Shown: positions 36,743 through 55,697 of the stretch, one piece after another
How the letters are laid out: every line of letters begins with the position of its first letter
Numbering within the stretch: the first letter of the stretch is position 1
Source: Candidatus Peribacteria bacterium
GTDB lineage: Bacteria > Patescibacteriota > Gracilibacteria > Peribacterales > Peribacteraceae
Assembly (NCBI GenBank): GCA_003483925.1
Contig: DMXL01000004.1
Location: forward strand, 8,242-72,241
DNA: 64,000 bases
Reading direction: 5' to 3'
Translations under genes and position numbers: made by a program
Notes under the pieces: generated by a model
The model's input: only the letters and a program-made list of their open reading frames with translations
Told to the model about the DNA's origin: nothing
The model's database searches: none

Positions 36743-37969
36743 TTACTCATACCTCAGTGCCTCAATGGGCTTAAGCTTTGCCGCTTTCCACGCCGGCAGC
36801 ATGCCGAAGAAGATGCCCACGCCCACGGAGAAGGCGAAGGCGAGGAACACCGAGGAGAAGGCGATGGAGGCATCGAAGGAGAAGTACGTGCTCACGATCC
36901 ACGAGCCGATCCAGCTCACGAGCGTTCCGATGGCGCCGCCGAGTACGCTTAAGACCGTGGACTCCACGAGGAACTGCAGCAGGATGTCGCGCTTCTTCGC
37001 TCCGATGGCCTTGCGGATGCCGATCTCGCGCGTGCGCTCCGTGACGGAGACGAGCATGATGTTCATCACGCCGATTCCTCCGACGAGGAGCGAAATGGCG
37101 GCGATCCCGCCGAGGAGCATCGTGAATGTTCCCGTGATGGAAGTGAGCGTCTGCACGATGTCGGCCTGGTTCAAGACCGAGAAGTCCTGCTTGGATGTAT
37201 CCGTGATGCCGTGCTCGTTCAAGAGGACGGCGGTGATCACCTGTTGCACGTAGTCCATCTCGTCCTGATTCTTCACGGACACGCTGATGGAGCTTAAGGT
37301 GTCTTTCCCCGTGACCCGCTGCTGCATGGTGGTCAGAGGGATGATGATCATGTCGTCGCGGTTCGTCGCTCCCTGTCCGCCCTTTGCTTCCATGACGCCG
37401 ATGACGGTGAAGAGGTTATTCCCTATGCGGATGCTCTCGCCCAGCGGATCGGGCGTATCGGGGAAAAGCGTCGAAAGCGTCTCCGATCCCAGCACGGCCA
37501 CTTTGTCCATGTTCGTCAGGTTGTCTGGCGTGATGAAACTGCCGAAATCCACGGAGGCGTTGCGGACGGAGAGGTACGAGGGGGTGGTCCCGATCACGCT
37601 CGTATTCGTATTTTGACTGCCGTAGATCACCTGCTGGCGGCTCGAGAGCTCGGGCTCGATGCCGCTTAAGAATGCGGAGACATTCTTCTCCAGTGCGTCG
37701 GCGTCCGTGGCTTTCAGCGTGGCGGTCGTCGACCCCCCGCCGCCGAAGCGGACATTCGTCCGGTTGGGGCTGCCGGGGGAGATGGAGAGGAGGTTGGTGC
37801 CGAGATTCTGGATCTGGGAGGTGATGCTGCGCTGCGATCCCTGGCCGATGGCCACCAGCAGCACCACGGACGCCACGCCGATGACGATGCCGAGCATTGT
37901 GAGGCCGGAGCGCATCTTGTTGCTCCCGATGGCTCCGAGCGCGTTGAGGACATTCTCGAGGATATTCAT
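36743..37969 (-). CDS. ABC transporter permease, MacB/FtsX type
   Basis: One N-terminal TM span, a periplasmic domain, then three C-terminal TM spans containing ERTREIGIRKAIGAKKRDIL. Confidence 0.85.
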   Translation of the reverse strand: MNILENVLNALGAIGSNKMRSGLTMLGIVIGVASVVLLVAIGQGSQRSITSQIQNLGTNLLSISPGSPNRTNVRFGGGGSTTATLKATDADALEKNVSAFLSGIEPELSSRQQVIYGSQNTNTSVIGTTPSYLSVRNASVDFGSFITPDNLTNMDKVAVLGSETLSTLFPDTPDPLGESIRIGNNLFTVIGVMEAKGGQGATNRDDMIIIPLTTMQQRVTGKDTLSSISVSVKNQDEMDYVQQVITAVLLNEHGITDTSKQDFSVLNQADIVQTLTSITGTFTMLLGGIAAISLLVGGIGVMNIMLVSVTERTREIGIRKAIGAKKRDILLQFLVESTVLSVLGGAIGTLVSWIGSWIVSTYFSFDASIAFSSVFLAFAFSVGVGIFFGMLPAWKAAKLKPIEALRYE

Positions 37970-38637
37970 TGTTTCTTGGTGAGGATGAGGCCGTCTTGAA
38001 TGGAGATGGTGCGGTGGGCGAAGGTGGCGACTCTCGGCTCATGCGTCACCATGACGATGGTCTTTCCCTGCTTATTGAGATTGGTGAGGATATCCATCAC
38101 CTCGTGGCCCGTCTGCGTGTCGAGGGCGCCCGTCGGCTCATCGGCGAGAATGATCGCGGGATCGGTGACGAGCGCACGCGCGATGGCGACGCGCTGTTGC
38201 TGGCCGCCGGAGAGCTCGGAGGGGTTGTGGGAGATCCGCTCGGAGAGACCGACCGTGTGCAAAGCTTGGCGTGCGCGCTCCTCCGTCTGTGTGCGGTGGA
38301 TGCCTTGGTACAGCAGCGGTTGCATCACCTGGCGCAGGGCGTCCATGCGCGGGAGCAGATTGAACGCCTGGAAGACGAAGCCGATGCGCTTCGATCGCAC
38401 GTCCGCCTGGGCGTTCTCATCGAGGCTCCCCACCTCTGCGTTCTCGAGCAGGTACGAGCCGCTCGAGGGCGTATCGAGCAGTCCGATGATGTTCATGAGG
38501 GTGGATTTGCCCGATCCCGACGGCCCCATGATGGCGACGAATTCCCCCCGATTGATCGTGAGCGAGATGCCCTTGAGCACGACGAGCTGGTCGTGACCGA
38601 GAGGATAGGCCTTGATGATGTTCGTCAGGGTAATCAT
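37966..38637 (-). CDS. ABC transporter ATP-binding protein (MacB/LolD-like)
   Basis: Walker [10 protein letters not shown], signature [15 protein letters not shown] and Walker [13 protein letters not shown] 4-nt overlap links it to the permease gene. Confidence 0.92.
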
Positions 38638-38651
38638 GGTATGCGTCGGGT

Positions 38652-40589
38652 TTAGCGCGGGGGGCCGCCCGTATCGCCCCCCAAGCCGCCGAGCCCTCGC
38701 ATGATCTGCTGCGTGGTGGCGGAGCTGGATTGGCCGGTTGCGACATTGACGGAGAGGATGGAGTCTCCTTCGCTCAAGCCGGAGAGGATTTCGGTGAAGC
38801 GGCCGTCCGTGACGCCTGTCAGCACCTCCACGGTCTCGCCGGAGGCTTTCTGGACGGTCGTCGCGTTCTCCTCATGCTTGAGGGCGAGATTGGGCACGAT
38901 GAGGACGTTCTCCCGGCGATCCGTCACGATCTGGACGGTCGCGGTCATGCCCGAGAGGATCGTGAGGCCCTCGGGAGTCGGCAGCTTCACTTCCACGTCG
39001 TAGGACACCACGCCGGACTGCTCGATGGCGGTCGGATTGATCTCATCGACGGTGCCGACGAACGTCTTTCCGGGGAGGGCGTCCAAGGCGATCGATCCGG
39101 ACATGCCCTTGCGGACGCGCACCACGTCCACCTGATCGAGTGGGACGGTGATGATGAGGAAGGCGGGATTCTCGATGACGATGTACTTGCTCTCGGTCGT
39201 GTCGGCCAACAGGTTGTCGCCGACTTGGAAATCCACGCGGCGGATGATGCCGTCGAACGGTGCTTTGAGCTGGTAGTCCTCGAGCGTCTTGCGGGTCTTG
39301 GAGAGAGCGGCGGACTTCTGGCCGATGTCGTTGAGCTTCAGGCGGATCTGGATGTCCGTTCCCGTGGTCGTGTTGTCGAAAGCCTGCTGTTTCGAAGCCA
39401 GCGTGCCGGGGTTCTGCGTCTGGAGGACCTTGAGATTCTCCTCTGCGGTCTTGAGAGCGTTTTCCGCCGTGATCACGGCGTCTTGCTTGGTTTTGAGGGT
39501 GACGGAGGGGATGCCTCCGTCTTCCGATGCGGCGGCGAGGTTGGCCTGCGCGGTCTCCGCTTCATTGATGAGATCGGCCGCCGTGGAGCGGTTGGAGCTG
39601 ACCGTCGTGCGCAGGGTCGTGAGGTCCGAAACCATGAAATCGGTGGTCCCCGTCGTCGCGCCTCGCAGGAGATCGTACGTGTTTTCACTGAGCGTATAGA
39701 TGTTGCTCGCGAGCTCCTGGGCATCGGACAGCGCTTGCATGAGGATGGCGGAATTACGCTGGATGGCGATGGTATCGCCGAACTGCTCACGCATCGTCAT
39801 CGCGGCGTTCACGGCATTGAGGTACGCCGTCTCAACGGATTGCTTGATGGCGTAATCATTGAAGAGCAACGGATCGATCTCAAGGTCGTAGTTGCCTTGC
39901 GAAGGGCGGGCGGATGTATCGCGCGTGAGGACACCGTAGAACGAATCGAGGAGCTTCTCCGAAGAGGTGAGCACGCTCTGCACGGTATTCCCCAGATTTT
40001 GCAGCTCCGTGGTGCGTTGCTTCTCCAAGTCCAGCTTCGATGCTTCGAGGGCCGTCTGCTTCTCCGAGACGCTCCGTGCGGCGGCATCGATGTCGGAAGG
40101 GAGTTTCTGCTGGGATGTGGCGAGATCGTTCTTCGCATCGAGGACCGTCTTCTCATTATCGTTGCGTAGCTGCTCCAGCTGCAGGGAGGAGGCGGCGATG
40201 GCCAGCTCGGCCTGCCGGATGTCGGAGAGAATCGAGGTCTTGTCCAGTTCGGCGATGATCTGCCCCTTCTTCACGATGTCACCTTCTTGGATGTTCACTT
40301 TGGCGACGGTGCCACGCTGATTGAAACGCATCTGTTGCTCATTGACGAAGGTGACGGACCCCGTGGCTTTCACGGAGGAGACGATGGATCCGCGTTCGAC
40401 GGTCGTCATGCTTTGCACCGTGGTCGTCGTCGTGGAGCTCTCTGTGAAGAAGAAGTAGTAGATGCCCCCTCCGAAGACGAGGCACACGCCGATTCCCCAG
40501 AGGTAACTGCGAAGCGACGTTCCGCTGAAGAAAGTTTTCCACCGTTTCAGCACGGCGAAGCGTTCAAGAAGGAGAGGGGAGGTGATCAT
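38652..40589 (-). CDS. HlyD/MacA-type periplasmic adaptor with extended coiled coil
   Basis: An N-terminal anchor is followed by the lipoyl-like block VNIQEGDIVKKGQIIAELD, a very long coiled coil, and beta-barrel blocks (APFDGIIRRVDFQVGD). The start ATGA overlaps the upstream stop. Confidence 0.8.
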   Translation of the reverse strand: MITSPLLLERFAVLKRWKTFFSGTSLRSYLWGIGVCLVFGGGIYYFFFTESSTTTTTVQSMTTVERGSIVSSVKATGSVTFVNEQQMRFNQRGTVAKVNIQEGDIVKKGQIIAELDKTSILSDIRQAELAIAASSLQLEQLRNDNEKTVLDAKNDLATSQQKLPSDIDAAARSVSEKQTALEASKLDLEKQRTTELQNLGNTVQSVLTSSEKLLDSFYGVLTRDTSARPSQGNYDLEIDPLLFNDYAIKQSVETAYLNAVNAAMTMREQFGDTIAIQRNSAILMQALSDAQELASNIYTLSENTYDLLRGATTGTTDFMVSDLTTLRTTVSSNRSTAADLINEAETAQANLAAASEDGGIPSVTLKTKQDAVITAENALKTAEENLKVLQTQNPGTLASKQQAFDNTTTGTDIQIRLKLNDIGQKSAALSKTRKTLEDYQLKAPFDGIIRRVDFQVGDNLLADTTESKYIVIENPAFLIITVPLDQVDVVRVRKGMSGSIALDALPGKTFVGTVDEINPTAIEQSGVVSYDVEVKLPTPEGLTILSGMTATVQIVTDRRENVLIVPNLALKHEENATTVQKASGETVEVLTGVTDGRFTEILSGLSEGDSILSVNVATGQSSSATTQQIMRGLGGLGGDTGGPPR

Positions 40590-40978
40590 GGCTGAGCGGG
40601 AAGAGAGGAGGCTGAAGAATGGCTGGAAGATTGATCGGACTTCGCGGGGGGAAACGCACCGCTTCCCGTTTCGCTGTCTCGACCCCACCCGCGGTCCGGG
40701 AAAGCGATGCCGCGCTCGGCGGAGATATCCCGGATGGTCTTGCCGCTGCCGAGGGCCGCGCGCAGTTCATCTTCCGTCATATGGAGTCTCTGTGCCATGC
40801 GCGAGAAATTCATCCCCTGCCCATCACCCTGTCGTTGCTGGAGAGTGCCACCATTCATTCCTGTTCGGGGAAACGGACGGGCAGGACCGAAGAAGCGCAG
40901 GCCGCCGATCACGAGAACGAGGACGAGGGCCCCGGAGAGGACGCCGATACCGAACGAGACAGGTTGGAACTTTTTCAT
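40586..40978 (-). CDS. Small membrane-anchored protein with MTEDEL-AAL-SGxTI module
   Basis: TM anchor GIGVLSGALVLVLVIGGL. The C-terminal module LHMTEDELRAALGSGKTIRDISAERGIAFP is paralogous to the C-terminus of the 50792-51502 product. Confidence 0.6.
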   Translation of the reverse strand: MKKFQPVSFGIGVLSGALVLVLVIGGLRFFGPARPFPRTGMNGGTLQQRQGDGQGMNFSRMAQRLHMTEDELRAALGSGKTIRDISAERGIAFPDRGWGRDSETGSGAFPPAKSDQSSSHSSASSLPAQP

Positions 40979-41019
40979 GAAAAGAGGGGGGAACTGCCTC
41001 TCAGTCTAGAGGAGTGATA

Positions 41020-41037
41020 TTAAGGGTGGATTAAGGC
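41020..41037 (-). promoter_or_regulatory. Direct repeat CCTTAAT-N4-CCTTAAT (candidate response-regulator site), oriented toward the efflux operon
   Basis: The plus strand reads ATTAAGGgtggATTAAGG with 11-bp spacing, about 45 nt upstream of the 40978 start. Confidence 0.4.
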
Positions 41038-41072
41038 ATTGCCCAGGCCAGAGGGACAGAGAATTCGTGAGA

Positions 41073-41091
41073 TTCTTAACCCATTCTTAAT
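41073..41091 (+). promoter_or_regulatory. Direct repeat ATTCTTAA-N3-ATTCTTAA (candidate response-regulator site), oriented toward the regulator gene
   Basis: 11-bp spacing. It ends 43 nt before the ATG at 41134. Confidence 0.4.
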
Positions 41092-41133
41092 GGGGAGAGC
41101 CTATCATAACCCCCGCATTCTTTCGCACCCTTC

Positions 41134-41799
41134 ATGCATATCCTCCTCGTCGAAGATCAGCGGAAACTCGCGGACAACATCAAACAGTTCCTCGAGCTGG
41201 AACACTACGTCGTAACCGTCGCCTCCGACGGCAAGGAGGGCTTCGAGCTCGCCATGACGCAGGACGTGGATCTCATCATTCTCGACATCAATCTCCCCGG
41301 CATGGACGGGTACGTCATCTGTACGATGCTGCGGCAGAATAAGAAGAACATGCCCATCCTCATGCTCACCGCGCGCGGCAAGCAAACGGAGATCATCCAC
41401 GGGCTGAATATCGGCGCGGACGACTACCTCCCCAAGCCCTTCGATCTTTCCGAGCTTCTGGCGCGTGTGAAGGCGCTCTTGCGGCGCAACAGTATCGAGA
41501 AGGCTCCCGTGCTCATCGCAGGGGACATCACCCTCGATACCAATACGCAGGAGGTTCGCAGGGGCGCGGACAAGGTCGCGCTCTCTCCCAAGGAGTATGC
41601 GCTCTTCGAATTCCTGCTCCGCAACAAAGGCGCCGTGCAGGATCGGCCGCGCATCCTCGATCACGTCTGGGGCGGACGGGACGATCTGATGTTCTCCCAG
41701 ACCGTCGACGTGCATATCGCTTACCTGCGGCGCAAGCTCGGCAAAGGGGCGGTGCGGACGGTCCCCGGGAAGGGGTATCTTGTGCCAGACTCCGCGTAG
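41134..41799 (+). CDS. OmpR/PhoB-family response regulator
   Basis: Receiver block ILLVEDQ...DLIILDINLPGMDG. The winged-helix output block is LSPKEYALFEFLLRNKGAVQDRPRILDHVWG. Confidence 0.92.
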   Translation: MHILLVEDQRKLADNIKQFLELEHYVVTVASDGKEGFELAMTQDVDLIILDINLPGMDGYVICTMLRQNKKNMPILMLTARGKQTEIIHGLNIGADDYLPKPFDLSELLARVKALLRRNSIEKAPVLIAGDITLDTNTQEVRRGADKVALSPKEYALFEFLLRNKGAVQDRPRILDHVWGGRDDLMFSQTVDVHIAYLRRKLGKGAVRTVPGKGYLVPDSA

Positions 41800-41918: not shown

Positions 41919-43100
41919 ATGTTCAAGCGCATCAGCCGCATCATCGCGCTTCAGTTCACTGCATTCATCTTCGTTCTGCTGCTCTTAAACGGCTTCCTCT
42001 TCCTCGCGGCGGATCTGGGCAATGAGCAGCGGCAGATGCGCTTCCGCCTCGAACGAATGGCGGAGGGCATCGCCGGCCGCTTCGAAATAGGAGTTTCTCC
42101 TCTCATGCCCCGGGAGGTGCCGCCGGGCATGCGTGATCGAGTGCAAATTCTCGACGCAGAGGGCGATGTGCTCTTCGGCAGTTCCCTCTTCGGTGACATT
42201 CCCTTCGAGAAGAGGCAGGGGTTTGCCGAGTTCTCGATTCAGGGAGAGCAGTACGCCGTCCTCACGGAACCGATTGTTCGCTCGGGGCGTACGGTGGGAT
42301 ATGCACAAGTCGCGGATGTCATCCGTTTCCAGATGGACGATCTTCCTCTGCGTGTCCTGCTGTACCTCATCTTAAGTGTTTCGATTTCGACGCTCATCTA
42401 CTTGGTGGCACTTGCCTTTGCCAAGCGCAGCCTCAAGCCCGCCGAGGAAATGGTCGAACGCCTCGAACAATTCACGCAGGATGCGAGCCATGAGTTGCGC
42501 ACGCCGCTCGCGACCTTGAGCTCTTCCCTCGATCTCGCGCTGCATAACGGCAAGCATCGCGAAGGTATCCTCTCGGCCAAGGATGACCTGAAGCAGGCGG
42601 AAGTGCTCGTGGAACGGCTCCTCGAGCTGGCGCGGCTCGACAAGTTTCTCCTCGAAACGTCTTCGGTGGATCTCTCGACGATGGTGGAGGAAGCCGTCGA
42701 GCGGCACCGCGCGTTCGCAGCCGAGAAGCACATCACGCTCGATGCGTCGATCGCGGCGAAGGTGAAGGTGAAGGGGGATGCGGCGCTGCTTCGGCAAGTG
42801 GTGAGTAATCTCCTCGCCAATGCGATCAAGTTCTCCAAGCCTGCAGGCGGCACGATCACCGTCACGCTCACGAAGACGGCGCTCACCATCGCCGACACGG
42901 GGATCGGCATTGCCAAGGATATTCTGCCGCGCGTCTTCGATCGCTTCTTCCAGGCGGATGAATCGCGGGCGCGGGGGGGATTTGGTCTTGGGCTCGCGTT
43001 GGTCAAGCGCATCGTGGAGCTGCATGGCTGGACGATCGTTGTCTCGAGTACGAAGGGGAAGGGGACGGCATTCCGGATTGACATCACGTCACAGTCTTGA
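41919..43100 (+). CDS. Sensor histidine kinase
   Basis: Two TM spans flank a sensor loop. The H-box is FTQDASHELRTPLATL. N and G boxes are NLLANAIKFS and DTGIGI...GGFGLGLALV. Confidence 0.9.
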   Translation: MFKRISRIIALQFTAFIFVLLLLNGFLFLAADLGNEQRQMRFRLERMAEGIAGRFEIGVSPLMPREVPPGMRDRVQILDAEGDVLFGSSLFGDIPFEKRQGFAEFSIQGEQYAVLTEPIVRSGRTVGYAQVADVIRFQMDDLPLRVLLYLILSVSISTLIYLVALAFAKRSLKPAEEMVERLEQFTQDASHELRTPLATLSSSLDLALHNGKHREGILSAKDDLKQAEVLVERLLELARLDKFLLETSSVDLSTMVEEAVERHRAFAAEKHITLDASIAAKVKVKGDAALLRQVVSNLLANAIKFSKPAGGTITVTLTKTALTIADTGIGIAKDILPRVFDRFFQADESRARGGFGLGLALVKRIVELHGWTIVVSSTKGKGTAFRIDITSQS

Positions 43101-43115
43101 GGGGGAGATAGACAT

Positions 43116-43131
43116 CTTAATCTCTCCTTAA
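43116..43131 (+). promoter_or_regulatory. CTTAA-N6-CTTAA motif copy with no obvious downstream gene
   Basis: CTTAAtctctcCTTAA lies 16 nt after the kinase stop codon. Confidence 0.25.
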
Positions 43132-43547
43132 TTTCTGCCCTTTAGAGTGCGGGCAGGTCTTTTCTCGTAGCTCTCACCTGATGAATGCGGAGGGGATCAC
43201 CAGCCTTCGCCCCGCGATGCGGGCTTCCCCCTTCGCTCCTGACGGAGCTACGGGGGGACAAGCCGGCCGGCGAGAGTGGTCATTATTCTTCTCTTGAACA
43301 GAATGGACTGTTAGGGAGATGGGCAACCACCGGCGAGAAAGCCGCCGCCATTGGATGGCGGCTCTTTCTGAGGGGGTTGCATCAGCTTGGCAACTGCTTG
43401 TGCTCCGTCTCCCGCATCTTTCCGTCCGGGGCTTCCAATTTCAACTGTCGACAAACTGTCGATGGTTCAAAGCCATCCTCTTCATGCGCTTCATGCCCCT
43501 TTCGAAACCTCTCGTAAGGACAAGACCGAATGTTTTCCGTGGAGTAC

Positions 43548-43817
43548 TCACTCTTTCAGTATATCATCGACCATCGCCTTCACGGAGCGGTATCTCTTCC
43601 CGTGCTTAAGTGCCTCTTCGCCCTCCCGGATCATCCTTCGCTCCTGTTCCACGGTGAAGCCGTTCACTGTGCGCAGAGGGAAGGGGATGCCCTGCGTGAT
43701 GACGATCTGGTGGAGGTACAGCTTGATGGCACTGCTCATATCCAGTCCGATACTCTCCAATACTTTCTGCGCATCTTTCTTGAGCTTGTTGTCGGTACGT
43801 ACTTGGATGGCGGTCAT
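43548..43817 (-). CDS. RelB/DinJ-family antitoxin-like protein (no toxin partner seen)
   Basis: IQVRTDNKLKKDAQKVLESIGLDMSSAIKLYLHQIVITQGIPF matches the DinJ ribbon-helix-helix core. Confidence 0.7.
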   Translation of the reverse strand: MTAIQVRTDNKLKKDAQKVLESIGLDMSSAIKLYLHQIVITQGIPFPLRTVNGFTVEQERRMIREGEEALKHGKRYRSVKAMVDDILKE

Positions 43818-43990
43818 GAGACAGGGGGTGAATATCTGTCACCATTGTAGTGCATTTGTAGTGATGATGTCAATACAGTATTCTTTTATCCGAGGATAGG
43901 AAGTTTAGGTGTCATGGTGAGGTGTCCTGAGCCTGACGAAGGGCCACGAATCCATACACGCCGCAATTTTATTGTCAGGCTCGGCTGGGG

Positions 43991-44524
43991 GTGTACAATC
44001 GTACAGTGAATGACATGTTAAAGAACTATCGACGGCAGTTTCTTCAGGCGAGAAGTCTGAGACAAGAGGCTCAAGAGAAGCTGAAAGATTATGAATCAGC
44101 CATGGGGAGAGCGTGGAGGGACTACGAGAAGTTGCGGAAAGAGGGCATACCATGCAAGGCGTTTGTCGAAGCGGACGGCCAATCGGAAGTGATTCAGGTT
44201 ACGCGTTGTTGTTGGAATCATGTCTTCAAACACCGTCACAAGAGAGGGACGAAGCTGGAGAAATTGGAGCGGGCCCTTTCGCTGTCTTTGGCAGTGAAAC
44301 TCTTGAATCGCACAACGACTTATCAGGAAGTGTCACGCGAAAAAGATCGCGGGGACAATACGTGGCTCTATTTCGGGATCATCGGTTATGTTCGGGGAGT
44401 GCGTATGAAAGTAATCATTCGCAAGCAAGAGAAATCCACCAATCCACAAAAAATTCTCTTCTCATTTTTCCAAATGTCTTCTGCCCCAGCAAAAACACAA
44501 CAAAAAGAAGAACTTGCTGAGTAG
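43991..44524 (+). CDS. Hypothetical protein, possibly BECR-fold RNase-like (very tentative)
   Basis: An N-terminal coiled coil is followed by VIQVTRCCWNHVFKHRHKRG...TWLYFGIIGYVRGVRMKVIIRK, a pattern reminiscent of phage/toxin barnase-EndoU-RelE-like modules. Confidence 0.45.
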   Translation: MYNRTVNDMLKNYRRQFLQARSLRQEAQEKLKDYESAMGRAWRDYEKLRKEGIPCKAFVEADGQSEVIQVTRCCWNHVFKHRHKRGTKLEKLERALSLSLAVKLLNRTTTYQEVSREKDRGDNTWLYFGIIGYVRGVRMKVIIRKQEKSTNPQKILFSFFQMSSAPAKTQQKEELAE

Positions 44525-44578
44525 CCCTGTCTTCGACTCCGCTCGCTTGCGCGTAGCTGGCCGGATCAAGGTGCTCCC

Positions 44579-44785
44579 TTGCGGGAACGGAACCTTTCAG
44601 GGCTGATACTATTGTCTCACATCCTCTCTTCCATAACAAGATCACGAAACGGCTTTTCTCACAGTTATACATACAAGGTGGCGCGCCGAAGTTTCGGCGG
44701 GCATCCGTGCAAGATATGCGGGGCGCGGATTCCGGGAAATAAGTCGTACTGTGCGGCGTGCTATTACAAGTACATCAAGAAGTAG
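44579..44785 (+). CDS. Possible small zinc-ribbon ORF (start uncertain)
   Basis: C-terminal CKICGARIPGNKSYCAACY (CxxC-x11-CxxC). The N-terminal part looks non-coding. Confidence 0.25.
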   Translation: MRERNLSGLILLSHILSSITRSRNGFSHSYTYKVARRSFGGHPCKICGARIPGNKSYCAACYYKYIKK

Positions 44786-45548
44786 GTGTTGGCTGATCCA
44801 AGGGAATCACTTTCTCTAAAATTGATTGGCCTTGCTCCCCACTTCCATATCCAACAACGGCACCGATTTTTCGGCGAAGGAATTTTTCTCCATCTCGCGT
44901 ATATATCGGCACACGCTTCCTCGCCCCATTGAACTTCTCGCGATCTAGCTTTCGGAGCCAATCGTCGGTAAGCCAAGGGCAGTTGTGAAAGTATATACAA
45001 GCTTCAAGCCTCAGAGCATCTTCACCAAACATCTGAACACAGCGAGCGTGAATTTCTTCCATCCGAGACTCCAGCTGACGAGGAGGACATTTGGCATCCT
45101 GTGATTTGCCATGTGCAACTGTTGCCACGCTCTCCTTGTCCATGGAGTCAGCAATATCAAACCAATCCTCCTTGCTCCACTGCTTCAATTCGACAAGGAT
45201 AGCGTTATTGCACTCGTTTCGACTCTGGCCGCAAATGATCGCATCAATTCTTCTCCATGTATCCAGTCGTGCTTCCAGGATCACAATCTGATTGCGTGAA
45301 ATATTCGATTCGGCAATGACTTTTGCAAGGGCGCGAGGCGAGTGGTGCCAAGAATTGATCTCAGGAGGCTTAGGAGGATTGTTGGGGTGGAAATGATGGT
45401 GTGCCGCTTTCAGGATTCGTGCAAAGTAGCCCTCTTTTTTGGCATCATCCAGATACCGCCGCACCGGTTCGGCGTAGTACCAATGTGTTGAGACAAGATT
45501 GGACATAAAGGGAGGCATTTTATCACAAATTGGAGTAATATAAGCCAA
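44775..45548 (-). CDS. PD-(D/E)xK nuclease-like protein resembling the N-terminal module of DUF2075-type proteins, without the ATPase
   Basis: IVILEARLDTWRRIDAIICGQ...NAILVELKQWS gives E...D...ELK in the order expected for a restriction-endonuclease-like fold. The gene is low-GC. Confidence 0.55.
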   Translation of the reverse strand: MAYITPICDKMPPFMSNLVSTHWYYAEPVRRYLDDAKKEGYFARILKAAHHHFHPNNPPKPPEINSWHHSPRALAKVIAESNISRNQIVILEARLDTWRRIDAIICGQSRNECNNAILVELKQWSKEDWFDIADSMDKESVATVAHGKSQDAKCPPRQLESRMEEIHARCVQMFGEDALRLEACIYFHNCPWLTDDWLRKLDREKFNGARKRVPIYTRDGEKFLRRKIGAVVGYGSGEQGQSILEKVIPLDQPTPTS

Positions 45549-45551
45549 TCC

Positions 45552-46400
45552 ATGATTTTGCTATTCTCAGAAATTCCAGGGCACCGGGACCAGCTTGGGA
45601 ATAAGAACAGGTCCATCTTTCGCATTGCGTCAGCAAAAGAATTTCCTATCCTTGAGGCAGGTTCGGCATTTATTATTCTTTCAGATGAACAAGAATTGCG
45701 AAGAAATACTGGCTTACTCGAGGATAAATTTGGATGTTTGAGAAGAGAATCAGACAAGTTTTTTGACTCGATATTGCGGCAGAAAGCGCCAAGTGGGTGG
45801 CGACTCCAGGAAATACTTATACCGTCATCCAATTTACGAACGAATGAAGAAATCCACATATTTCGTTCTGCTCAATATCCCGAACAGATGATTATTGTTG
45901 CGGATTCTTTGGATCGAATACTCATAGATATACAACTGTTCACACAAGGTGAGACTGTTCATGCTATATACAATCACTTCCAAGCAGCTATCAACAGATA
46001 TGCAATGAGACAGGCAGAAATTCTTCTCAAGTTGGAGCCACAATCAGCAGAGGAGGCACAACTACTTAAACGAAGCACAACTGATCTCCATATTCAATGG
46101 CAGTTGGCGAGAGAATTCTTTGGCCATCAGCATGATTGGACCAATGTTATGCAGAAAATTGAGTTGGCAAAGCAGCATGCTATTGATCGGTTATCATATT
46201 TTCCAGTGGTAAGCCCTATAACAGCTGCAATTATTGCTGGAGGCAATGTAGTCGCAGGTGGCGATATCAGGGTTAATTCAAACAACGTTCGTAATACCAA
46301 ACCAGAACATAATTGGAAGCGCATTCTCATTGAGATTGTTGTGGGTGTTCTTGTCGTGGCGATAGGAGGTTATTTGCTCTTCGTGTTTGGCTGGAATTAA
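45552..46400 (+). CDS. Hypothetical protein with a single C-terminal TM helix
   Basis: 282-aa low-GC ORF ending in WKRILIEIVVGVLVVAIGGYLLFVFGWN. The start is uncertain because it sits only 4 nt from the divergent gene's start; the next in-frame Met is at 45888. Confidence 0.5.
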   Translation: MILLFSEIPGHRDQLGNKNRSIFRIASAKEFPILEAGSAFIILSDEQELRRNTGLLEDKFGCLRRESDKFFDSILRQKAPSGWRLQEILIPSSNLRTNEEIHIFRSAQYPEQMIIVADSLDRILIDIQLFTQGETVHAIYNHFQAAINRYAMRQAEILLKLEPQSAEEAQLLKRSTTDLHIQWQLAREFFGHQHDWTNVMQKIELAKQHAIDRLSYFPVVSPITAAIIAGGNVVAGGDIRVNSNNVRNTKPEHNWKRILIEIVVGVLVVAIGGYLLFVFGWN

Positions 46401-46401
46401 C

Positions 46402-49305
46402 TCATGATTTTTCGATAATTGCTTTTTCCTCTTCCGTCAGCCCATACAACTCATACACCAACTCATCAATCTTCCGATCCGTTACCTCGATTTGACGCTT
46501 AAGGGACTCTTGATCGTGCGGAGTTTTCGGATGCAGTTTGTGTAACGAAAGCATTTTATCAACAAGATTGATGATTTGTTCTTTAACATGCATATTTGAA
46601 TTTATGCATAGCGGCAAGCTATTTAACTCGCCAATTCGTATCTCTGGGAAAGTGTTTTCCGTACGGTCATATCTCTTCTTGAAATAGAAAGCTATTAGCC
46701 GACTACCGAGAAGAGCTGCGACATATTTGCTATCAACACTTCCATTCCGGGGCTTTACCGTGTGCAGTAATTGATCTGCAATTAATAAATCCGAGACTGG
46801 ACACAAAACTAATCGATCTCCGACAATCCTACGAATTAATACTCTCGGTCCAGAGAACAGGTCTATCGTTCTTGGTTCTGCTAGATGCACACCGTATTTA
46901 ATCCATGACCCACCAGAATAGATTTGATAAGGTGTGATGTGCTTTCCTCGAATATAGGGATAAAAACTGGAATCAATTTTTTTATCTGATTCGAATAGTT
47001 TTTGTTTTGCCTCCTGTTCTGTCTGAGGCGGGAGACCTTTTCCAACTTGATAAACCTTTACGCCAAATCTTACATCACATGTATTTGATAATGGCTCTCC
47101 AATTTTTTCAATTTTATTTAAAATAGAAATGTCCGTTGCAGAAACAGATAAATTAAAAACTAGATTGGGATTTGATCGCCAACACATCGGAGTAATCTTA
47201 TGAGTTTTGAACTCAAGTTGGCTCTCATAATTCTCAATAACGATTGGTGTGTTTAGATCCGATGATTTTCTGGAAATAGCAATGAACACAATAGGTAATA
47301 CTGTTGCACCTGAAAAAACACTGACATTTCGAAAGTCACCTATTCTTTGAATCTGGCTAACTTCCATGACATATTTTCTTAATAAATAATAATGTTCATT
47401 GTTTAGCCAAGTATTTGGAGTAATAAATCCTAAATAACCGTCTTTTCTAAGTAAGTCATATGCCTTTTGAAGAAAAAGGGCATATAGATCATATTGATCT
47501 GTCATACAGGAAAATTTTGTTTTGAAATACGAGCGTAATTTCCGCATTTCATCTTCCCATTCTCTTCCTGCTAAGTATGGAGGATTCCCGATCACCGCAT
47601 CGAACCCCGGATTTGCGCGTTTGAAGACCTGCGGGAAAGCCGGTTCCCAATCGAAGACATTGATGCGCTGACGATCGGTATCTTCTGTCGCAAGGAGTGT
47701 CTGTTGCTCACCGTCATAGAAATCCGACCCGATGAGAGAATTGCCACACTTGATATTGGCCCCCAGGTCCGGCAGCACACGCTCACGCATGCCGGAGAGC
47801 TGCTGCTGCGCCGTCAGCCCCGTTTCGCCCTCCAAGACTTTGAGCAAGAGCGAGAGCTTGGTGACCTCCACAGCCTGCGGATCGATGTCCACGCCGAAGA
47901 TAGTGGAGAGGAGGATGCGCTTGCGCTCGGAGATGGAAAGGCGGTAGCCCGTGTCGTGAGCCCGCACGTCTGGTTCGACGGGCTCACCATGACGTGCTGA
48001 GATGCTACAAAGCTCCTTCTTCCACTTCTTTGGATCGTGTTCCAAGTAATACTTCAAATGCCAGTCGAGCAGGTACTGGTACGCACCGAGGAGGAAGGAA
48101 CCGGAGCCGCAGGCGGGGTCCACGATCTTGAGCTCCGCGACTTTCTTGGGGGTCTTGCTTTCGAGGAGCTTGCCCACCGTGTGCTCGACGATGTAGTCCA
48201 CGATGTACTTGGGCGTGTAGTACACGCCGCCCGCCTTGCGGACTTCGGGCTTCTCCTCGACTTTGGCATGGTGGCCTTCCGTGAGGCGGATGACTTTTCC
48301 CAGGAATTGCTCGTAGACATGCCCGAGGATGTCAGGCGGGATGACGGCGAACGCATAGGGGCCGTCGTAGAGACTGGCGATAATTTCCTTGAGCACCGCG
48401 TCATCAATCGTGAGATGCGGCGTAACCATATCCGGCGGCTCGCCTTGGCCCTTCTCCTCTCGGAAGTGGAAGAGCCCGGAGTTGTAGCGGCCATCGGCGT
48501 CGCGGAAGAGCTGCTTCAAGCGCTCGTAGGTATCGGAGCCGCTCATTTCCGCCATGAGCCTGCCGTACTGCTCGATCCCTCGATCTTCGCAGATCCTCAG
48601 GAAGATCATGCGGTCGATGGTCTGCTGGACGGCGTAGTTCATCTCCTGCTGACCCAGCGTGGGATTGCGATTAGCGATGTTCTTCGCAAGAAGCTCCCGC
48701 CAGTGCTCGATCTCCTTCAAAAATTCATCATCCACTTCCTGTGTGCCGTGCCGCTTCTCGCCCGCATACTTGTCGAAGGAACCTTGGAGAACGGCATCCT
48801 TGGAGAAGATAGCCGCAATCTCATCCCAGCGTGCCGCATACTCCTCGAAAGTGAAGAGATGAATGCGGGCAACCGATGCCTTGTCGGCGCTCTTGGGACG
48901 GCTGCGGCAGTCATAGACGGCGAACTCCTCGAAGTCCGTGAGGATGGAGAGGGGGAGCTTGGCGGACCACGCGTAGCGACGTAACTGGTAGGCGGGCCCC
49001 GGCGCACCCTTGATATCCACGGATGGCTTCTTGGCTTCTACGAAGAATTTGCGATCGTGTCCGATGCGCATGCAGTAGTCGGGAGCCTTCATAGCATCCC
49101 CGATGCGAATGGCATCTTCGTGGATCACTTCTTTGAAAGCCTCTGCATGTCCTTGGGTATTGCGTACGTCCCACCCCAATGTTTCGAGGAAAGGATCGAG
49201 GAACTCCACGCGTAGCGAGGCTTCTTTGTATCGCGACGCCTTCAGTTCATCACGCTTGCGCTTGAATTGCTCGACAAGGGTAAGTATTTCCTTTGGTGCG
49301 GGCAT
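46402..49305 (-). CDS. Type IIG restriction-modification enzyme (PD-(D/E)xK nuclease + gamma-class N6-adenine methyltransferase + specificity domain)
   Basis: N-terminal nuclease block APDYCMRIGHDRKFFVEAKKPS. Methyltransferase motif I is VDPACGSGSFLLGA and motif IV is VIGNPPYL. The long C-terminal region is TaqI/Eco57I-type. Confidence 0.85.
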   Translation of the reverse strand: MPAPKEILTLVEQFKRKRDELKASRYKEASLRVEFLDPFLETLGWDVRNTQGHAEAFKEVIHEDAIRIGDAMKAPDYCMRIGHDRKFFVEAKKPSVDIKGAPGPAYQLRRYAWSAKLPLSILTDFEEFAVYDCRSRPKSADKASVARIHLFTFEEYAARWDEIAAIFSKDAVLQGSFDKYAGEKRHGTQEVDDEFLKEIEHWRELLAKNIANRNPTLGQQEMNYAVQQTIDRMIFLRICEDRGIEQYGRLMAEMSGSDTYERLKQLFRDADGRYNSGLFHFREEKGQGEPPDMVTPHLTIDDAVLKEIIASLYDGPYAFAVIPPDILGHVYEQFLGKVIRLTEGHHAKVEEKPEVRKAGGVYYTPKYIVDYIVEHTVGKLLESKTPKKVAELKIVDPACGSGSFLLGAYQYLLDWHLKYYLEHDPKKWKKELCSISARHGEPVEPDVRAHDTGYRLSISERKRILLSTIFGVDIDPQAVEVTKLSLLLKVLEGETGLTAQQQLSGMRERVLPDLGANIKCGNSLIGSDFYDGEQQTLLATEDTDRQRINVFDWEPAFPQVFKRANPGFDAVIGNPPYLAGREWEDEMRKLRSYFKTKFSCMTDQYDLYALFLQKAYDLLRKDGYLGFITPNTWLNNEHYYLLRKYVMEVSQIQRIGDFRNVSVFSGATVLPIVFIAISRKSSDLNTPIVIENYESQLEFKTHKITPMCWRSNPNLVFNLSVSATDISILNKIEKIGEPLSNTCDVRFGVKVYQVGKGLPPQTEQEAKQKLFESDKKIDSSFYPYIRGKHITPYQIYSGGSWIKYGVHLAEPRTIDLFSGPRVLIRRIVGDRLVLCPVSDLLIADQLLHTVKPRNGSVDSKYVAALLGSRLIAFYFKKRYDRTENTFPEIRIGELNSLPLCINSNMHVKEQIINLVDKMLSLHKLHPKTPHDQESLKRQIEVTDRKIDELVYELYGLTEEEKAIIEKS

Positions 49306-49412
49306 TTGTAGGAACTATAGCGCTATACGGAATGGAGCGGAAAAGAATAAGTCTCATATTTTACAAAATATGAGACGAATATGGACTTAGGTCGCACTCG
49401 TGGGATGTATCG

Positions 49413-50504
49413 CTAAACGATGGCTATTAGCTTTGGAAATACAAATAATGCAGGCCTTCCCCGTACGCCCTTTCTGACCAAATCAATGGTTCCGCCCTTT
49501 TGGAGCTGCTGAAGTATACGAAGAGCAGTTGCACGGGGAATCCGCGAAGTAGTTATAAAGTCAGTGCTGTTGAAAATTGGATTTTTAAAAAGAAAATCAA
49601 GAGCTTCAACCGTGTATTGCGAATGGGTTAGGGCACGGAGGCGCTCCTTCTTCTTGTCGTAGAGCTGATGTATAGCCCTTGCCTTTTGAATATTCATCTT
49701 TGATTGTTCGATTACGGCTCTTAGGAAATAGCTGATCCACCCATTCCAGTCATCATGTTGAGAAATCCCAAGAAGGCCATCGTAATATTCTCGCCGATGA
49801 CTCTCAAAATATTCACTAATGTAGAACATGGGGGACGATAGGACACCCTTGAAAGAGAGAAAGAGTGGCATGAGCATTCTTCCAACGCGACCGTTGCCGT
49901 CTGCAAAAGGATGAATGAGTTCAAACTGAGCATGAATAATTGCGAGCTGTACGAGCTTGTCTTTCTCATCTCCATGTATGTACTTTTCAAGATTGGAAAA
50001 ATAGCTCTCTACTTCTTGTGGAGGTGGAGGAATATAAAAGGCTTCCTCAATGGGTCTGCCAGGTCTGCCAATGTGTACTTGCGATCTCCTGAAATTTCCT
50101 CGATCGGCATTATGGCCTCGAACATTCTCCAATAGAATGGCATGAGCTTCTTTAATAAGACGCCCGCTCAACGAGATATTTTCCATGTTTTGAATAGAGT
50201 GACGCATTGCTCTCCGATAATTGAGAATGAGATCAATATCTCCGCCCTTTTTATTCTCTCTTTCCGGTTCAGCCTCAAATCGCAGCACATCCTCGAGAGA
50301 GGCTTCTGTTCCTTCGATCTTGGAAGAAAGAACGGCCTCGTTTGTTTCTAAAGGAGAGAGAAGGACTTGCGGATTTGGAAGGCTTTGTAATAGGCCATCG
50401 AAGCGGGCGACTTCCGCATTTGCGGGTCCGATGAGATGGACGAACCTCTCCCATTGGAGCTCAGTAAGTGGGAGGTGTTTTGGATCAAATGGCTTGATCA
50501 TCAA
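49413..50504 (-). CDS. Fic family protein with C-terminal winged-helix
   Basis: The Fic motif is HPFADGNGRVGRMLM. An N-terminal Fic_N-like region is also present. Confidence 0.9.
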   Translation of the reverse strand: MMIKPFDPKHLPLTELQWERFVHLIGPANAEVARFDGLLQSLPNPQVLLSPLETNEAVLSSKIEGTEASLEDVLRFEAEPERENKKGGDIDLILNYRRAMRHSIQNMENISLSGRLIKEAHAILLENVRGHNADRGNFRRSQVHIGRPGRPIEEAFYIPPPPQEVESYFSNLEKYIHGDEKDKLVQLAIIHAQFELIHPFADGNGRVGRMLMPLFLSFKGVLSSPMFYISEYFESHRREYYDGLLGISQHDDWNGWISYFLRAVIEQSKMNIQKARAIHQLYDKKKERLRALTHSQYTVEALDFLFKNPIFNSTDFITTSRIPRATALRILQQLQKGGTIDLVRKGVRGRPALFVFPKLIAIV

Positions 50505-50549
50505 TCGTTGGAAGAATCGTACATAGTATATGCCAATACAGCTCGAAAT

Positions 50550-50621
50550 AAACGAGAGGGAATACCCTTCGGACGAAACCTTTGGTGTGCCCTCTCATCG
50601 TGATGGAATCATCATACTGCG
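50550..50621 (+). repeat. 72-nt structured repeat (copy 1)
   Basis: 67/72 identical by eye to 56534-56605. It has the stems GAGAGGG...CCCTCTC and TGATG-GAAT-CATCA. Confidence 0.8.
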
Positions 50622-50711
50622 ATCCGGGGCCTAACCAACGAGAATAGTGAGATAGGGTGGCTCATTCTTGCCGAATATTTCCTCGTTTCGCATCACTATG
50701 CTGCGAAAGCT

Positions 50712-50727
50712 GTTAACCAACTCTTAA
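50712..50727 (+). promoter_or_regulatory. GTTAA-N6-CTTAA motif copy
   Basis: GTTAAccaactCTTAA lies 65 nt upstream of the ATG at 50792. Confidence 0.35.
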
Positions 50728-50791
50728 ACCCTCCTCCCTATACTCCCCTTTGCTTAAGCGCGTTTTCTATTTCGTTCTCCCCTATTCCCCT

Positions 50792-51502
50792 ATGAAATTA
50801 TCCTCTTTTACTCTCGGCGCTGTTGCCGGACTCTCGGCTATGGCGCTCGCGGTCCCCTTCGCGGCGCAGATCGTGGGCGCGCAGACCACTTCGGCTCCTT
50901 CCGGCGAGCGGTCCCGTCCCGTGCCTACACAGGCATGCGTGCTCGCTCTCGCGGAGCAGGAAGGGACCTATCTCTCGACAGTCGACACGTTGATCGCAGC
51001 GCGGAAGTCCGCCATGCAGATCCACAAGGATGCCCTCACGGCTGCTTCTGCTATCGCAGATGATGCGCAGCGTGCGGCCGCTGTCCAGAAAGCCAACGAC
51101 GACCTGCGTGCGGCCATGGAAGCCGCCAGGAAAGCGCAGGGGGACGGGAAGACACAGATGGATGCCCTGAAAACGGCCTGCGGCGACAGCGCTTTCCGCG
51201 GGTTCGGCCCCATGATGGGCGGCGGCATGCCGGGGTTCGGCGGGCGCGGCATGGGCATGCAGGCAAGAGGGGAGGGGCGTGGCCCCGGCCCCAGGACGGA
51301 CGTACTCGCAGAAAAACTCGGCATGACCGAGGATGAACTGCAGGCGGCGCTCGAGAGCGGTCAGACGATCGAGCAGATCGCAGAAAGCAAGGGTATCACG
51401 CTTCCGGCCCGCCAAGAGAAGGGCAAGGGCATGATGCGCGGCGGCTGGGGTCGCGGCGGCGCACCGTCGGATGCGACGAGCAGTTCCTCTTCACAACCCT
51501 AG
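50792..51502 (+). CDS. Secreted helical / Gly-Met-rich protein with MTEDEL-AAL-SGxTI module
   Basis: Signal peptide MKLSSFTLGAVAGLSAMALAVPFAAQ. It has the GFGPMMGGGMPGFGGRGMGM tract and the C-terminal LGMTEDELQAALESGQTIEQIAESKGITLP. Confidence 0.7.
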   Translation: MKLSSFTLGAVAGLSAMALAVPFAAQIVGAQTTSAPSGERSRPVPTQACVLALAEQEGTYLSTVDTLIAARKSAMQIHKDALTAASAIADDAQRAAAVQKANDDLRAAMEAARKAQGDGKTQMDALKTACGDSAFRGFGPMMGGGMPGFGGRGMGMQARGEGRGPGPRTDVLAEKLGMTEDELQAALESGQTIEQIAESKGITLPARQEKGKGMMRGGWGRGGAPSDATSSSSSQP

Positions 51503-53833: not shown

Positions 53834-53849
53834 TTTAATCAAATCTTAA
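53834..53849 (+). promoter_or_regulatory. TTTAA-N6-CTTAA motif copy
   Basis: TTTAAtcaaatCTTAA lies 46 nt upstream of the ATG at 53895. The surrounding ~35-nt block is similar to 55671-55705. Confidence 0.35.
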
Positions 53850-53894
53850 GCCCCCTTATCCTCCCCCTCGCTTCAGCCTCTTCTATTCTCCGCT

Positions 53895-55283
53895 ATGCTG
53901 CACTCCATGCAGAGAAGGGGACGCCGATGCTGCGGATGCATGGCACTCATAGGCGTATTGCTCCTTCAGAGCGCACACGCAGTCGCCACGAGCCCTCCGC
54001 CTTTTCCCGATATGGCGAAATCGTGGTACGGCTACCAGGAGAGTGTCACGTATCTGAAAGACAAAGGTTCCATCGGCGGGTACCCCGACGGACTCTTCCA
54101 TCCCAGAGAAACAGTCAACCGCGCGGAATTCCTCAAGCTCGTTTTCCGCTCCAAAGGCGCTGCCGAACCGGTTACGGAGAATTGTTTCGCCGATGTCCCT
54201 GCCGATGCGTGGTACGCGCCGTTCGTGTGCGCGGCCAAGCGGCGGGGGATGGTGAGCGGGTATAAGGTAGGATCGCGCGCGCTCTTCCGGCCGGAGCAGC
54301 CGATCATCTTCGCCGAGGCCATCAAGATGGCGGTGCTTGCGTACGGAAACGCCGTCACCGAGGGGCGGGGAGAGGAGTGGTACAAGCCGTACGTCGATGT
54401 CCTCGATAGCCGGAAGATTCTCGCGAGCTGGTCGTATGTTCCGTGGGACCCCATCACGCGCGAGCGCGCCGCCGATCTGATCGCCCGGTTCGTGCGGCAC
54501 GATGAAGACCGCGTGATCCCCAACCTCTCGCCCGGGTGCGGGAAAACCGAGCGCAGTCCTTCGCTCGTCCTCTCCGTCGGGGGGCGGGAGCGCACGTACC
54601 TGCTCACCCAAGCGCGCAACGCGAGTGCCGGTACCCCTTCGCCGCTCATCGTCGCCTTCCACGGCCGCACCAACAGCAATGCGCAAGTGCGGGAGTACTT
54701 CGGCCTGGATCGTGCGGCATCCGCGTATTTCATCGCCTACCCGGACGGCGTCTTAAGCGGGAACGGAAGCTACTCCTGGTCGGACCCGGGGGATCCGGCG
54801 CAGGAGCTGCGGGATTTCGCGGAATTCGATGCCATCGTGCGGGAAATCGCCGAGAGCGCGTGCATCGACATGGATCGCATTTTCGTGGTGGGCCATTCGC
54901 TCGGCGCGTGGTTCGCCAATGCCGTCGCGTGCGCGCGCGGAGGTATTGTGCGCGGTTCCGCCACCGTCGGCGGTTCCACGACGATGCAGAACTGCACGGG
55001 GCCTTCCGCCGCGATGATCATCAACAATCCGAAAGATGCCCTCTCGTCGCAGGTGACTGCGGAAGCGATGCGCGATATCCGTCTGGAAGAAAATGCGTGC
55101 ACCACGACGACGCGGCGTGCGGATCCCGCATCTCTCTCGTGCGTGCAGTATGCCGGTTGCATCCGGGATCCCGTCGTCTTCTGCCCGCATACCATCGATA
55201 CCGATCATCGCGGGGCGTACTACCCGCACGTGTGGCCACCGGGCACCGCGGAAGCGATGGTGAAGTTCTTCGGAGGGCTGTAG
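53895..55283 (+). CDS. SLH-domain esterase (PHB depolymerase / LpqC-like alpha/beta hydrolase)
   Basis: A signal peptide is followed by SLH blocks (FPDMAKSWYGYQESVTYLKDKGSIGGYPDGLF; FADVPADAWYAPFVCAAKRRGMVSGY), then LIVAFHGRTNS and the nucleophile elbow VVGHSLGAW. Confidence 0.75.
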   Translation: MLHSMQRRGRRCCGCMALIGVLLLQSAHAVATSPPPFPDMAKSWYGYQESVTYLKDKGSIGGYPDGLFHPRETVNRAEFLKLVFRSKGAAEPVTENCFADVPADAWYAPFVCAAKRRGMVSGYKVGSRALFRPEQPIIFAEAIKMAVLAYGNAVTEGRGEEWYKPYVDVLDSRKILASWSYVPWDPITRERAADLIARFVRHDEDRVIPNLSPGCGKTERSPSLVLSVGGRERTYLLTQARNASAGTPSPLIVAFHGRTNSNAQVREYFGLDRAASAYFIAYPDGVLSGNGSYSWSDPGDPAQELRDFAEFDAIVREIAESACIDMDRIFVVGHSLGAWFANAVACARGGIVRGSATVGGSTTMQNCTGPSAAMIINNPKDALSSQVTAEAMRDIRLEENACTTTTRRADPASLSCVQYAGCIRDPVVFCPHTIDTDHRGAYYPHVWPPGTAEAMVKFFGGL

Positions 55284-55681: not shown

Positions 55682-55697
55682 TTTAACCAACTCTTAA
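55682..55697 (+). promoter_or_regulatory. TTTAA-N6-CTTAA motif copy
   Basis: TTTAAccaactCTTAA lies 31 nt upstream of the ATG at 55728. Confidence 0.3.

Follow-up and report, generated by a model that had tools for sequence, protein, structure and literature searches.

A PmrA-like tandem-repeat box as the predicted operator of the only OmpR/PhoB-type response regulator in a Candidatus Peribacteria genome

Several well-studied response regulators recognize pairs of short direct repeats. At PhoB-dependent promoters, the tandem repeats of the pho box lie at an 11-bp phase, replace the -35 element, and stop about 10 bp short of the -10 hexamer. The CpxR consensus is GTAAA-N5-GTAAA, and PmrA is known for its control of lipid A modification genes. 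The Salmonella PmrA box consists of CTTAAG and xTTAAT with 5 bp between them, and the pbgP box of Klebsiella pneumoniae reads TCTTAATATTATCCTAAGC, so that a sequence of this kind is a bona fide target of the OmpR family (PMC3973317). Here, we describe an element of the same kind in a 64,000-nucleotide stretch of DNA (the window; C7:8242-72241) from a Candidatus Peribacteria bacterium, whose genome (G000) consists of 1.38 Mb (1,383,074 bp) in 7 contigs with 58% GC. The element, called the box below, is built of two head-to-tail hexamers, (T)CTTAAT-N5-CTTAAT, set 11 bp apart, with 10-11 bp between its 3' end and a TAnnnT hexamer downstream. We propose, with a probability of roughly 0.8 and from sequence comparisons, that the box is the operator of the OmpR/PhoB-family regulator encoded in the window, located within activator-dependent promoters of the sigma-70 type.

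An earlier note on this DNA had listed six loci with a spaced yTTAA-N6-CTTAA repeat and had linked them to the OmpR-type two-component system as a candidate regulon. Direct reading confirmed each of the six sites, designated boxes A to F here. The coordinates were generally correct, except that box A lies one base away, at 41019-41036 rather than 41020-41037; box D, at 50712, has the spacing described but begins GTTAA and so departs from the yTTAA form of the first half-site. Four further sites elsewhere in the genome, the -10 hexamer at a fixed distance, and the PmrA-box layout had been missed.

The recurrence of the motif, which the same note had judged to be more than chance, is evident from genome-wide counts. 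TTAA occurs 841 times in the genome and the spaced form TTAA-N7-TTAA 10 times, against about 0.5 expected. Every other spacing between N0 and N30 gives 0-5 sites, with a mean of about 1.9, so that N7 alone is enriched. The narrower form yTTAA-N6-CTTAA occurs 7 times, 5 of them within 15 kb of the window. All ten TTAA-N7-TTAA sites are upstream of a gene and oriented towards it, 27-100 nt from the start codon, which is the rare and promoter-directed distribution that a genome-wide scan had been proposed to look for. By a crude caller of open reading frames (ORFs), nine are intergenic and the tenth, box E, overlaps a spurious ORF only. A position weight matrix (PWM) gave a single additional match above threshold, which lies outside the window on the minus strand at C3:194606 and departs from the box at one core position (CCCTTAATCCCTTCTTAGG), and a relaxed regular expression that allowed one mismatch and required a -10 hexamer found no further sites in the genome. 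A fuzzy search for the GGTGCCCCTTCCC flank was run with settings too loose to be informative.

The scarcity of TTAA might be thought to reflect specific avoidance, as for a restriction or transposon target. This idea is ruled out by an observed/expected ratio of 1.23, calculated from trinucleotides, which amounts to plain composition; the most avoided tetranucleotide is CTAG, at 0.33. TTAA is thus rare though not avoided, and therefore provides a high-information operator core.

The boxes occupy a fixed place within promoters. TAnnnT is found exactly 11 nt past the second CTTAA in 8/10 sites (12 nt at a site ahead of ABC-transporter genes), the hexamers including TAGACT, TATCAT, TAGAGT, TATACT, TATGCT, TATCTT and TACCCT. 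In this arrangement the box spans about -40 to -23, in place of a -35 hexamer, and the -35 position itself falls in the spacer between the half-sites, which has no resemblance to TTGACA. Ordinary promoters of this genome follow the pattern TTGAC-N17/18-TAnnnT, with 39 and 29 matches for the two spacings over a background of about 6. Considering that the general promoters are canonical while the boxed ones have no -35 element, the boxed promoters form a separate class; the missing -35 also makes them probably activator-dependent.

Further evidence that the box is functional comes from relatives. Across ten genera of the family, in which the regulator proteins are 64-81% identical, the DNA ahead of the regulator gene can be aligned at no positions other than TTAA-N7-TTAA and the T, A and T of the -10 hexamer, all of which are invariant. 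The box precedes the regulator gene in all ten genera. Among loci from 47 Peribacteria species, fetched by protein similarity, 44 have an exact box followed by TAnnnT at 10-12 nt (at 11 nt in 37 of these 44), and the conservation that the earlier note had proposed to look for is thereby established. The consensus of the 44 species is TCTTAAT-N4-YCTTAAT followed by N10-TAnnnT, the rest of the spacer not being conserved. In 21 of them the -10 hexamer ends just 6-9 nt before the regulator ATG (the leader in G000 is 26 nt), and many of these regulator operons are probably leaderless. Such a distance is that expected for a leaderless start, and therefore provides independent support for the assignment of the -10.

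A wider scan covered 58 Peribacteria loci of about 6.5 kb each and recovered 127 full boxes in roughly 0.75 Mb of searched strand, where fewer than one is predicted from the control rate. These boxes cluster around the two-component genes: 51 precede the regulator, 23 precede genes of a secreted-protein family (secreted236, described below), 15 precede its smaller relative (small130), 3 precede HlyD genes, 7 precede genes for SLH proteins, and 27 precede other or unclassified ORFs. A box after the kinase gene recurs in about 30 loci.

Could the recurrence nevertheless be a product of chance or composition, given that the intergenic DNA is AT-rich and the genome GC-rich? The density of TTAA is indeed about 3.5-fold higher between genes than within them (219 of the 841 copies in about 9% of the genome), and the motif was defined after the sites had been seen. 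Composition does not, however, explain why a single spacing is enriched, why the sites are oriented towards genes at a fixed distance from a -10, or why the core bases stay invariant while their flanks diverge. We give virtually no credence to the chance reading, which is refuted by the spacing counts, by the footprints across family genera and across 44 species, and by the 127-box scan.

The predicted binder of the box is the response regulator encoded at 41134..41799 (plus strand), which consists of a receiver domain (PF00072, 2e-33) and a Trans_reg_C winged-helix domain (PF00486, 4e-19). A search with PF00486 gave exactly one match in G000 and likewise a single match per genome in ten others of the family. 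Moreover, a tblastn search of the whole genome with the regulator detected other receiver domains and no second winged-helix domain. The distribution of the box was compared with that of the regulator in 31 genomes, using a box followed by a -10 at 11 nt as the search pattern and its reversed sequence as control. The eleven family genomes that encode the regulator contain 41 matches versus 11 in the control, while the eight family genomes without it contain 8 versus 13, with 6 of these 8 in one AT-rich genome (5 in its control). The proposed link to the OmpR-type system is thus well supported, in that enrichment tracks the sole DNA-binding protein of this type.

A different interpretation is that the box and its -10 together form the promoter of an alternative sigma factor of the extracytoplasmic function (ECF) type, for example the one encoded on C6, rather than the operator of a response regulator. 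One of the ten sites does precede an ECF sigma/anti-sigma operon, ECF sigma factors are usually autoregulated, and two conserved parts at a fixed distance are promoter-like. The architecture argues otherwise, however: the upstream part is a tandem duplicate hexamer at an 11-bp phase, neither copy of which is 16-18 bp from the -10, and the downstream part is a normal TAnnnT rather than the CGT-type -10 of ECF promoters. Orthologues of the sigma factor are present in nearly all genomes of the family and class, including six that are not enriched for the box (G003, G004, G009, G010, G013 and G016), and no box is found near the sigma orthologue in any relative, G001 included. A factor that is near-universal does not account for a box that is not, and we reject the sigma promoter as a very improbable reading.

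G001, a genome of the same genus, counts against the operator reading. It encodes no Trans_reg_C protein, yet it keeps intact, orthologous boxes with -10 hexamers before a GGDEF-like gene and before htrA (C7:2288-2319 and C11:43269-43300); the assembly contains no trace of the two-component locus, giving weak matches to ABC paralogues only. Recent loss, an assembly gap or another binder could explain these boxes. Other points on the same side are that the site ahead of the ECF sigma operon is not conserved, even in G001; that boxes E and F have no proper -10 at the standard distance; that D, E and F resemble local copies of one another; that the missing -35 is the single feature from which we infer activation rather than repression; and that gene content is the single basis for reading the system as an envelope-stress response (see below).

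If the two boxes of G001 are taken at face value, the box might be a genuine operator bound by some other DNA-binding protein co-inherited with the locus, its link to the regulator being one of genomic position. Binding by the regulator is, after all, predicted from sequence. Against this, a tandem pair of hexamers, spaced by one helical turn and placed at the -35 position, is the signature of OmpR/PhoB proteins, of which the genome has one. It is around the regulator gene that boxes are densest and best conserved, the locus contains no other conserved regulator gene, and a homologue, PmrA, binds the same hexamer at the same spacing (PMC3973317). Another binder is therefore improbable, and we continue with the regulator as the predicted binder.

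The regulator itself is a generic member of the OmpR/PhoB family. Its scores fall below the cut-off of every NCBIfam equivalog model: 186 bits against 279 for the heavy-metal regulators, 180 against 296 for PhoB, 176 against 330 for PmrA, 133 against 341 for CpxR and 134 against 380 for BaeR. The CssR and MprA models are not among the NCBIfam matches listed for it. Membership of a named orthologous group was accordingly rejected. The best structural homologue is DrrD of Thermotoga maritima (1kgs, 1.4e-54), with PmrA/BasR structures at E of about 1e-36, and the DNA-binding domain is nearer to T. maritima DrrD and Mycobacterium tuberculosis PhoP than to BasR.

Outside the Peribacteria, the box was not found ahead of three regulator homologues, from Thermoleophilia, Ktedonobacterales and Actinomycetes. 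In an uncultured member of the Thermoleophilia whose regulator is 55% identical (L117:2925-3003), the sequence CGTAAGGGTGCCTTAAC is followed 11 nt later by TATCGT. The retention of one half-site and of the geometry hints at a shared origin or a transfer of the system.

Within the window, the centre of the proposed regulon is the 155-bp spacer between the divergent efflux operon and the regulator gene, which carries two outward-facing boxes. Box B (TCTTAACCCATTCTTAAT; 41074-41091, plus strand, by direct reading) is the predicted autoregulatory operator ahead of the regulator gene. Its -10, TATCAT (41102..41107), is 11 nt past CTTAA and 26 nt ahead of the regulator ATG. The cognate sensor kinase follows at 41919..43100 (plus strand; HisKA and HATPase_c by Pfam), and a by-eye reading of its topology suggests two transmembrane segments around an outside loop of about 110 aa. 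Box A (CCTTAATCCACCCTTAAT; minus strand, by direct reading) has the second highest PWM score of the genome, 33.9, and is the predicted operator of the divergent promoter; in 18 Peribacteria loci a small130/HlyD-family gene is likewise preceded by a box on this strand. Here the -10, TAGACT (41003..41008, minus strand), is 11 nt past CTTAA and 25 nt ahead of the ATG at 40978. The predicted target is an operon of four genes on the minus strand (36743..40978, from the ORF list and Pfam). The first gene (40586-40978) encodes small130, a membrane-anchored 130-aa protein of the form 'MTEDEL...SGKTI' with no Pfam family, and is followed by genes for an HlyD-type adaptor (38652-40688), an ABC ATPase (37966-38637) and a MacB/FtsX permease (36743-37969), all three assigned by Pfam.

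Box C (CTTAATCTCTCCTTAAT; 43116-43132, plus strand) comes directly after the kinase stop codon and is the top PWM match of the genome, with a score of 37.3. Its -10, TAGAGT (43143..43148), stands at the head of a short stretch bounded by a terminator-like hairpin, GAGAAAGCCGCCGCC..GGCGGCTCTTTCTGA (43328-43376). Box D (GTTAACCAACTCTTAA; 50712-50727, plus strand) has its -10, TATACT (50739..50744), 11 nt past CTTAA, and is the predicted proximal operator of the secreted236 gene (50792..51502, plus strand).

The history of these two sites can be read from the closest relative found, L062, whose regulator is 93% identical and in which the efflux operon is syntenic. The order there is kinase, box C, a short stretch to a terminator-like hairpin, box D, the secreted gene, a further box and an SLH protein; the homologue of box D reads TTTAACCGAATCTTAA, with a 12-nt spacer. 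The window aligns with L062 up to 43199, again at 43328-43376, where the hairpin is conserved, and then from 50713, at box D. Because the alignment breaks off at 43376 and restarts at box D, the low-GC segment of about 43.4-50.7 kb (roughly 43377-50711) is an insertion relative to L062. This insertion lies between the hairpin and box D, and box C is therefore not a relic of the promoter of the secreted gene. The unit headed by box C measures about 95 nt in L062 and about 220 nt here, owing to a 128-nt insertion. The stretch served by promoter C (43143-43376) is a candidate for a regulator-dependent small RNA or a tiny ORF (MNAEGI...). Transcription from promoter C would run antisense into a dinJ-like gene at 43548-43817.

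Boxes E and F are less orderly. Box E (TTTAATCAAATCTTAA; 53834-53849, plus strand) lies 46 nt ahead of the SLH-esterase gene (53895-55283, Pfam) and is atypical: TAnnnT is missing from +11, and the closest sequences that might serve instead are TATCCT at +7 and, 5 nt ahead of the ATG, TATTCT at 53884-53889. Box F (TTTAACCAACTCTTAA; 55682-55697, plus strand) lies 31 nt ahead of the gene for an NYN-domain protein (55728-56534, Pfam), and its weak -10 candidate, CATTTT at +12, is located past a run of ten C residues. The block of about 35 nt that the earlier note saw in common between E and F (GGTGCCC..TTCCC..TTTAAyCAAmTCTTAAsCCCCC) is present, and boxes D and F contain an identical 15-mer, TTAACCAACTCTTAA.

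These likenesses raise the possibility that E and F are copies of D, carried in the duplicated block of about 35 nt and not working as operators, in which case the regulon in the window would consist of A-D only. Neither has TAnnnT at +11/12, and their PWM scores are the lowest (14.0 for F, and below the cut-off for E). The NYN gene has not been seen as a target in relatives, where conservation of site F was not looked for. Both sites nevertheless keep two TTAA cores at the exact spacing and face a start codon 31-46 nt away; moreover, canonical boxes occur at SLH-protein genes in seven related species, and in other species there are bona fide autoregulatory boxes that begin with a half-site of the TTTAAT type. 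The copy explanation seems to us rather unlikely, and both sites are kept in the proposed regulon.

The four remaining boxes lie outside the window. One, TTAATCCCTCCTTAAT (C7:84703, within 84685-84717, minus strand), is 12.5 kb past the window end and precedes an ABC ATPase and ABC-2 permease pair; its TACCCT is at +12 and is separated from the ATG by 7 nt. It is the seventh box on the contig of the window, and the transporter would be the second in the putative regulon. The other three are ahead of an HtrA protease gene (C5:313337, minus strand), a gene for a GGDEF-like protein (C3:142815, plus strand) and the ECF sigma/anti-sigma operon (C6:27343, minus strand), the last being a weaker regulon candidate. 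Box and -10 are found ahead of htrA in G000, G001, G005 and G014, and direct control of this HtrA/DegP-family protease by the box is accordingly predicted. The htrA gene of G006 is preceded by a TTAA pair in the opposite orientation. HtrA was rejected as a universal target, being missing at E<=1e-60 from several genomes that bear the system.

Outside the two-component operon, the most widely conserved target is the secreted236 family; the box is also found ahead of its members in G002, G011, G012 and G014, and in G015 a box precedes a small130-type gene divergent from the regulator. The secreted 236-aa protein and small130 are paralogues with a common C-terminal module, 'LGMTxDELxAALxSGKTIxxIAxxKGxxLP', and neither belongs to a Pfam or NCBIfam family. 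Homologues of secreted236 fall into about 80 clusters, of which the few with labels are hypothetical proteins of Peribacteria or Peregrinibacteria. An AlphaFold2 model (from a 46-sequence alignment; mean predicted local distance difference test score 72.6) consists of a signal peptide, a confidently modelled long helical hairpin (47-130), a Gly/Met linker that is disordered, and a small module of three helices that contains the MTEDEL...SGQTI motif. Foldseek comparison of this model with the PDB returned nothing below E = 1. By reading of sequences, the lineage-specific exported proteins with a box in other species appear to include cupredoxin-like and YceI-like proteins and lipoproteins.

How might these parts work together? 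The mechanism is inferred from that established for PhoB and PmrA/BasR. The kinase (41919-43100) would phosphorylate the regulator; the phosphorylated protein would dimerize and place its two winged-helix domains on the half-sites in tandem; and the dimer would recruit RNA polymerase to promoters that could not otherwise be recognized. In the window, the predicted regulon would contain the regulator/kinase operon itself (positive autoregulation), the small exported protein with the efflux operon, the stretch after the kinase gene, the secreted236 paralogue, the SLH-esterase and the NYN protein. Elsewhere in the genome it would extend to the ABC/ABC-2 transporter, the HtrA protease, the GGDEF-like protein and, more weakly, the ECF sigma operon. 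The presence of HtrA, exported proteins, an efflux pump and SLH proteins suggests a response to stress of the cell envelope or of secretion.

A broader picture can be drawn, which we offer as speculative and on balance doubtful. In the Peribacteraceae, whose genomes measure about 1-1.5 Mb and encode one winged-helix response regulator, the box would define a self-contained and patchily inherited envelope-stress cassette made up of sensor, regulator, efflux pump and two lineage-specific exported 'MTxDEL-SGKTI' proteins, which may be feedback or chaperone partners. Its promoters would be largely leaderless and would have no -35, and a small regulator-driven RNA might be made after the kinase gene. 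If true, this would make the cassette the first cis-regulatory circuit to be defined in a bacterium of the candidate phyla radiation (CPR), with a DNA code that matches proteobacterial PmrA. We found no published work on transcriptional regulation in Peribacteria or Peregrinibacteria, whether concerning two-component systems, response regulators or HtrA.

The circuit proposed here is of an ordinary kind, well documented in an unusual lineage of uncultured CPR bacteria. The mechanism is textbook, and the value of the analysis lies in annotation and in an experimental entry point rather than in a new principle. It yields a concrete pair of operator and regulator whose compact regulon is conserved in dozens of species, offers a lead on what such reduced cells sense at the surface, and singles out a lineage-specific family of exported proteins as the chief output of the one OmpR-type system that they have.

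The closest parallels in regulon logic are with CpxRA, CssRS, MprAB and BaeSR, a resemblance drawn from general knowledge, in which an HtrA/DegP-type protease is combined with an efflux pump and a small exported protein. The small exported gene divergent from an autoregulated two-component operon is reminiscent of cpxP-cpxRA. The Peribacteria box differs from the CpxR consensus given above, however, and by the NCBIfam scores the regulator is an orthologue of neither CpxR nor BaeR. As regards the CpxP/Spy family, the putatively co-regulated exported proteins match no family of Pfam or NCBIfam, and the fold modelled for secreted236 combines a helical hairpin with a three-helix module.

Two other systems have parallels in the DNA. 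The boxed promoters share with those of PhoB the geometry, the absence of a recognizable -35 and a regulator operon that is predicted to be autoregulated, but the half-site is CTTAAT rather than the CTGTCAT of the pho box, the regulator falls far short of the PhoB cut-off, and no phosphate-uptake genes are among the targets. With the PmrA/BasR box of Salmonella, Klebsiella and E. coli, the 44-species consensus shares the layout, and it conforms to the YTTAAK-N5-YTTAAK type (PMC3973317). The Peribacteria regulator is nonetheless not a PmrA orthologue (176.4 bits for NF007928, which has a cut-off of 330), and its host is a CPR bacterium. Genes for lipid A or lipopolysaccharide modification are not found downstream of the ten sites, the genome as a whole not having been searched for such genes; the targets are instead HtrA, exported proteins, efflux and SLH proteins. 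Considering that the DNA-binding domain is not closest to BasR and that the targets are unrelated, the element would work in the manner of a PmrA box or pho box while being a member of neither regulon.

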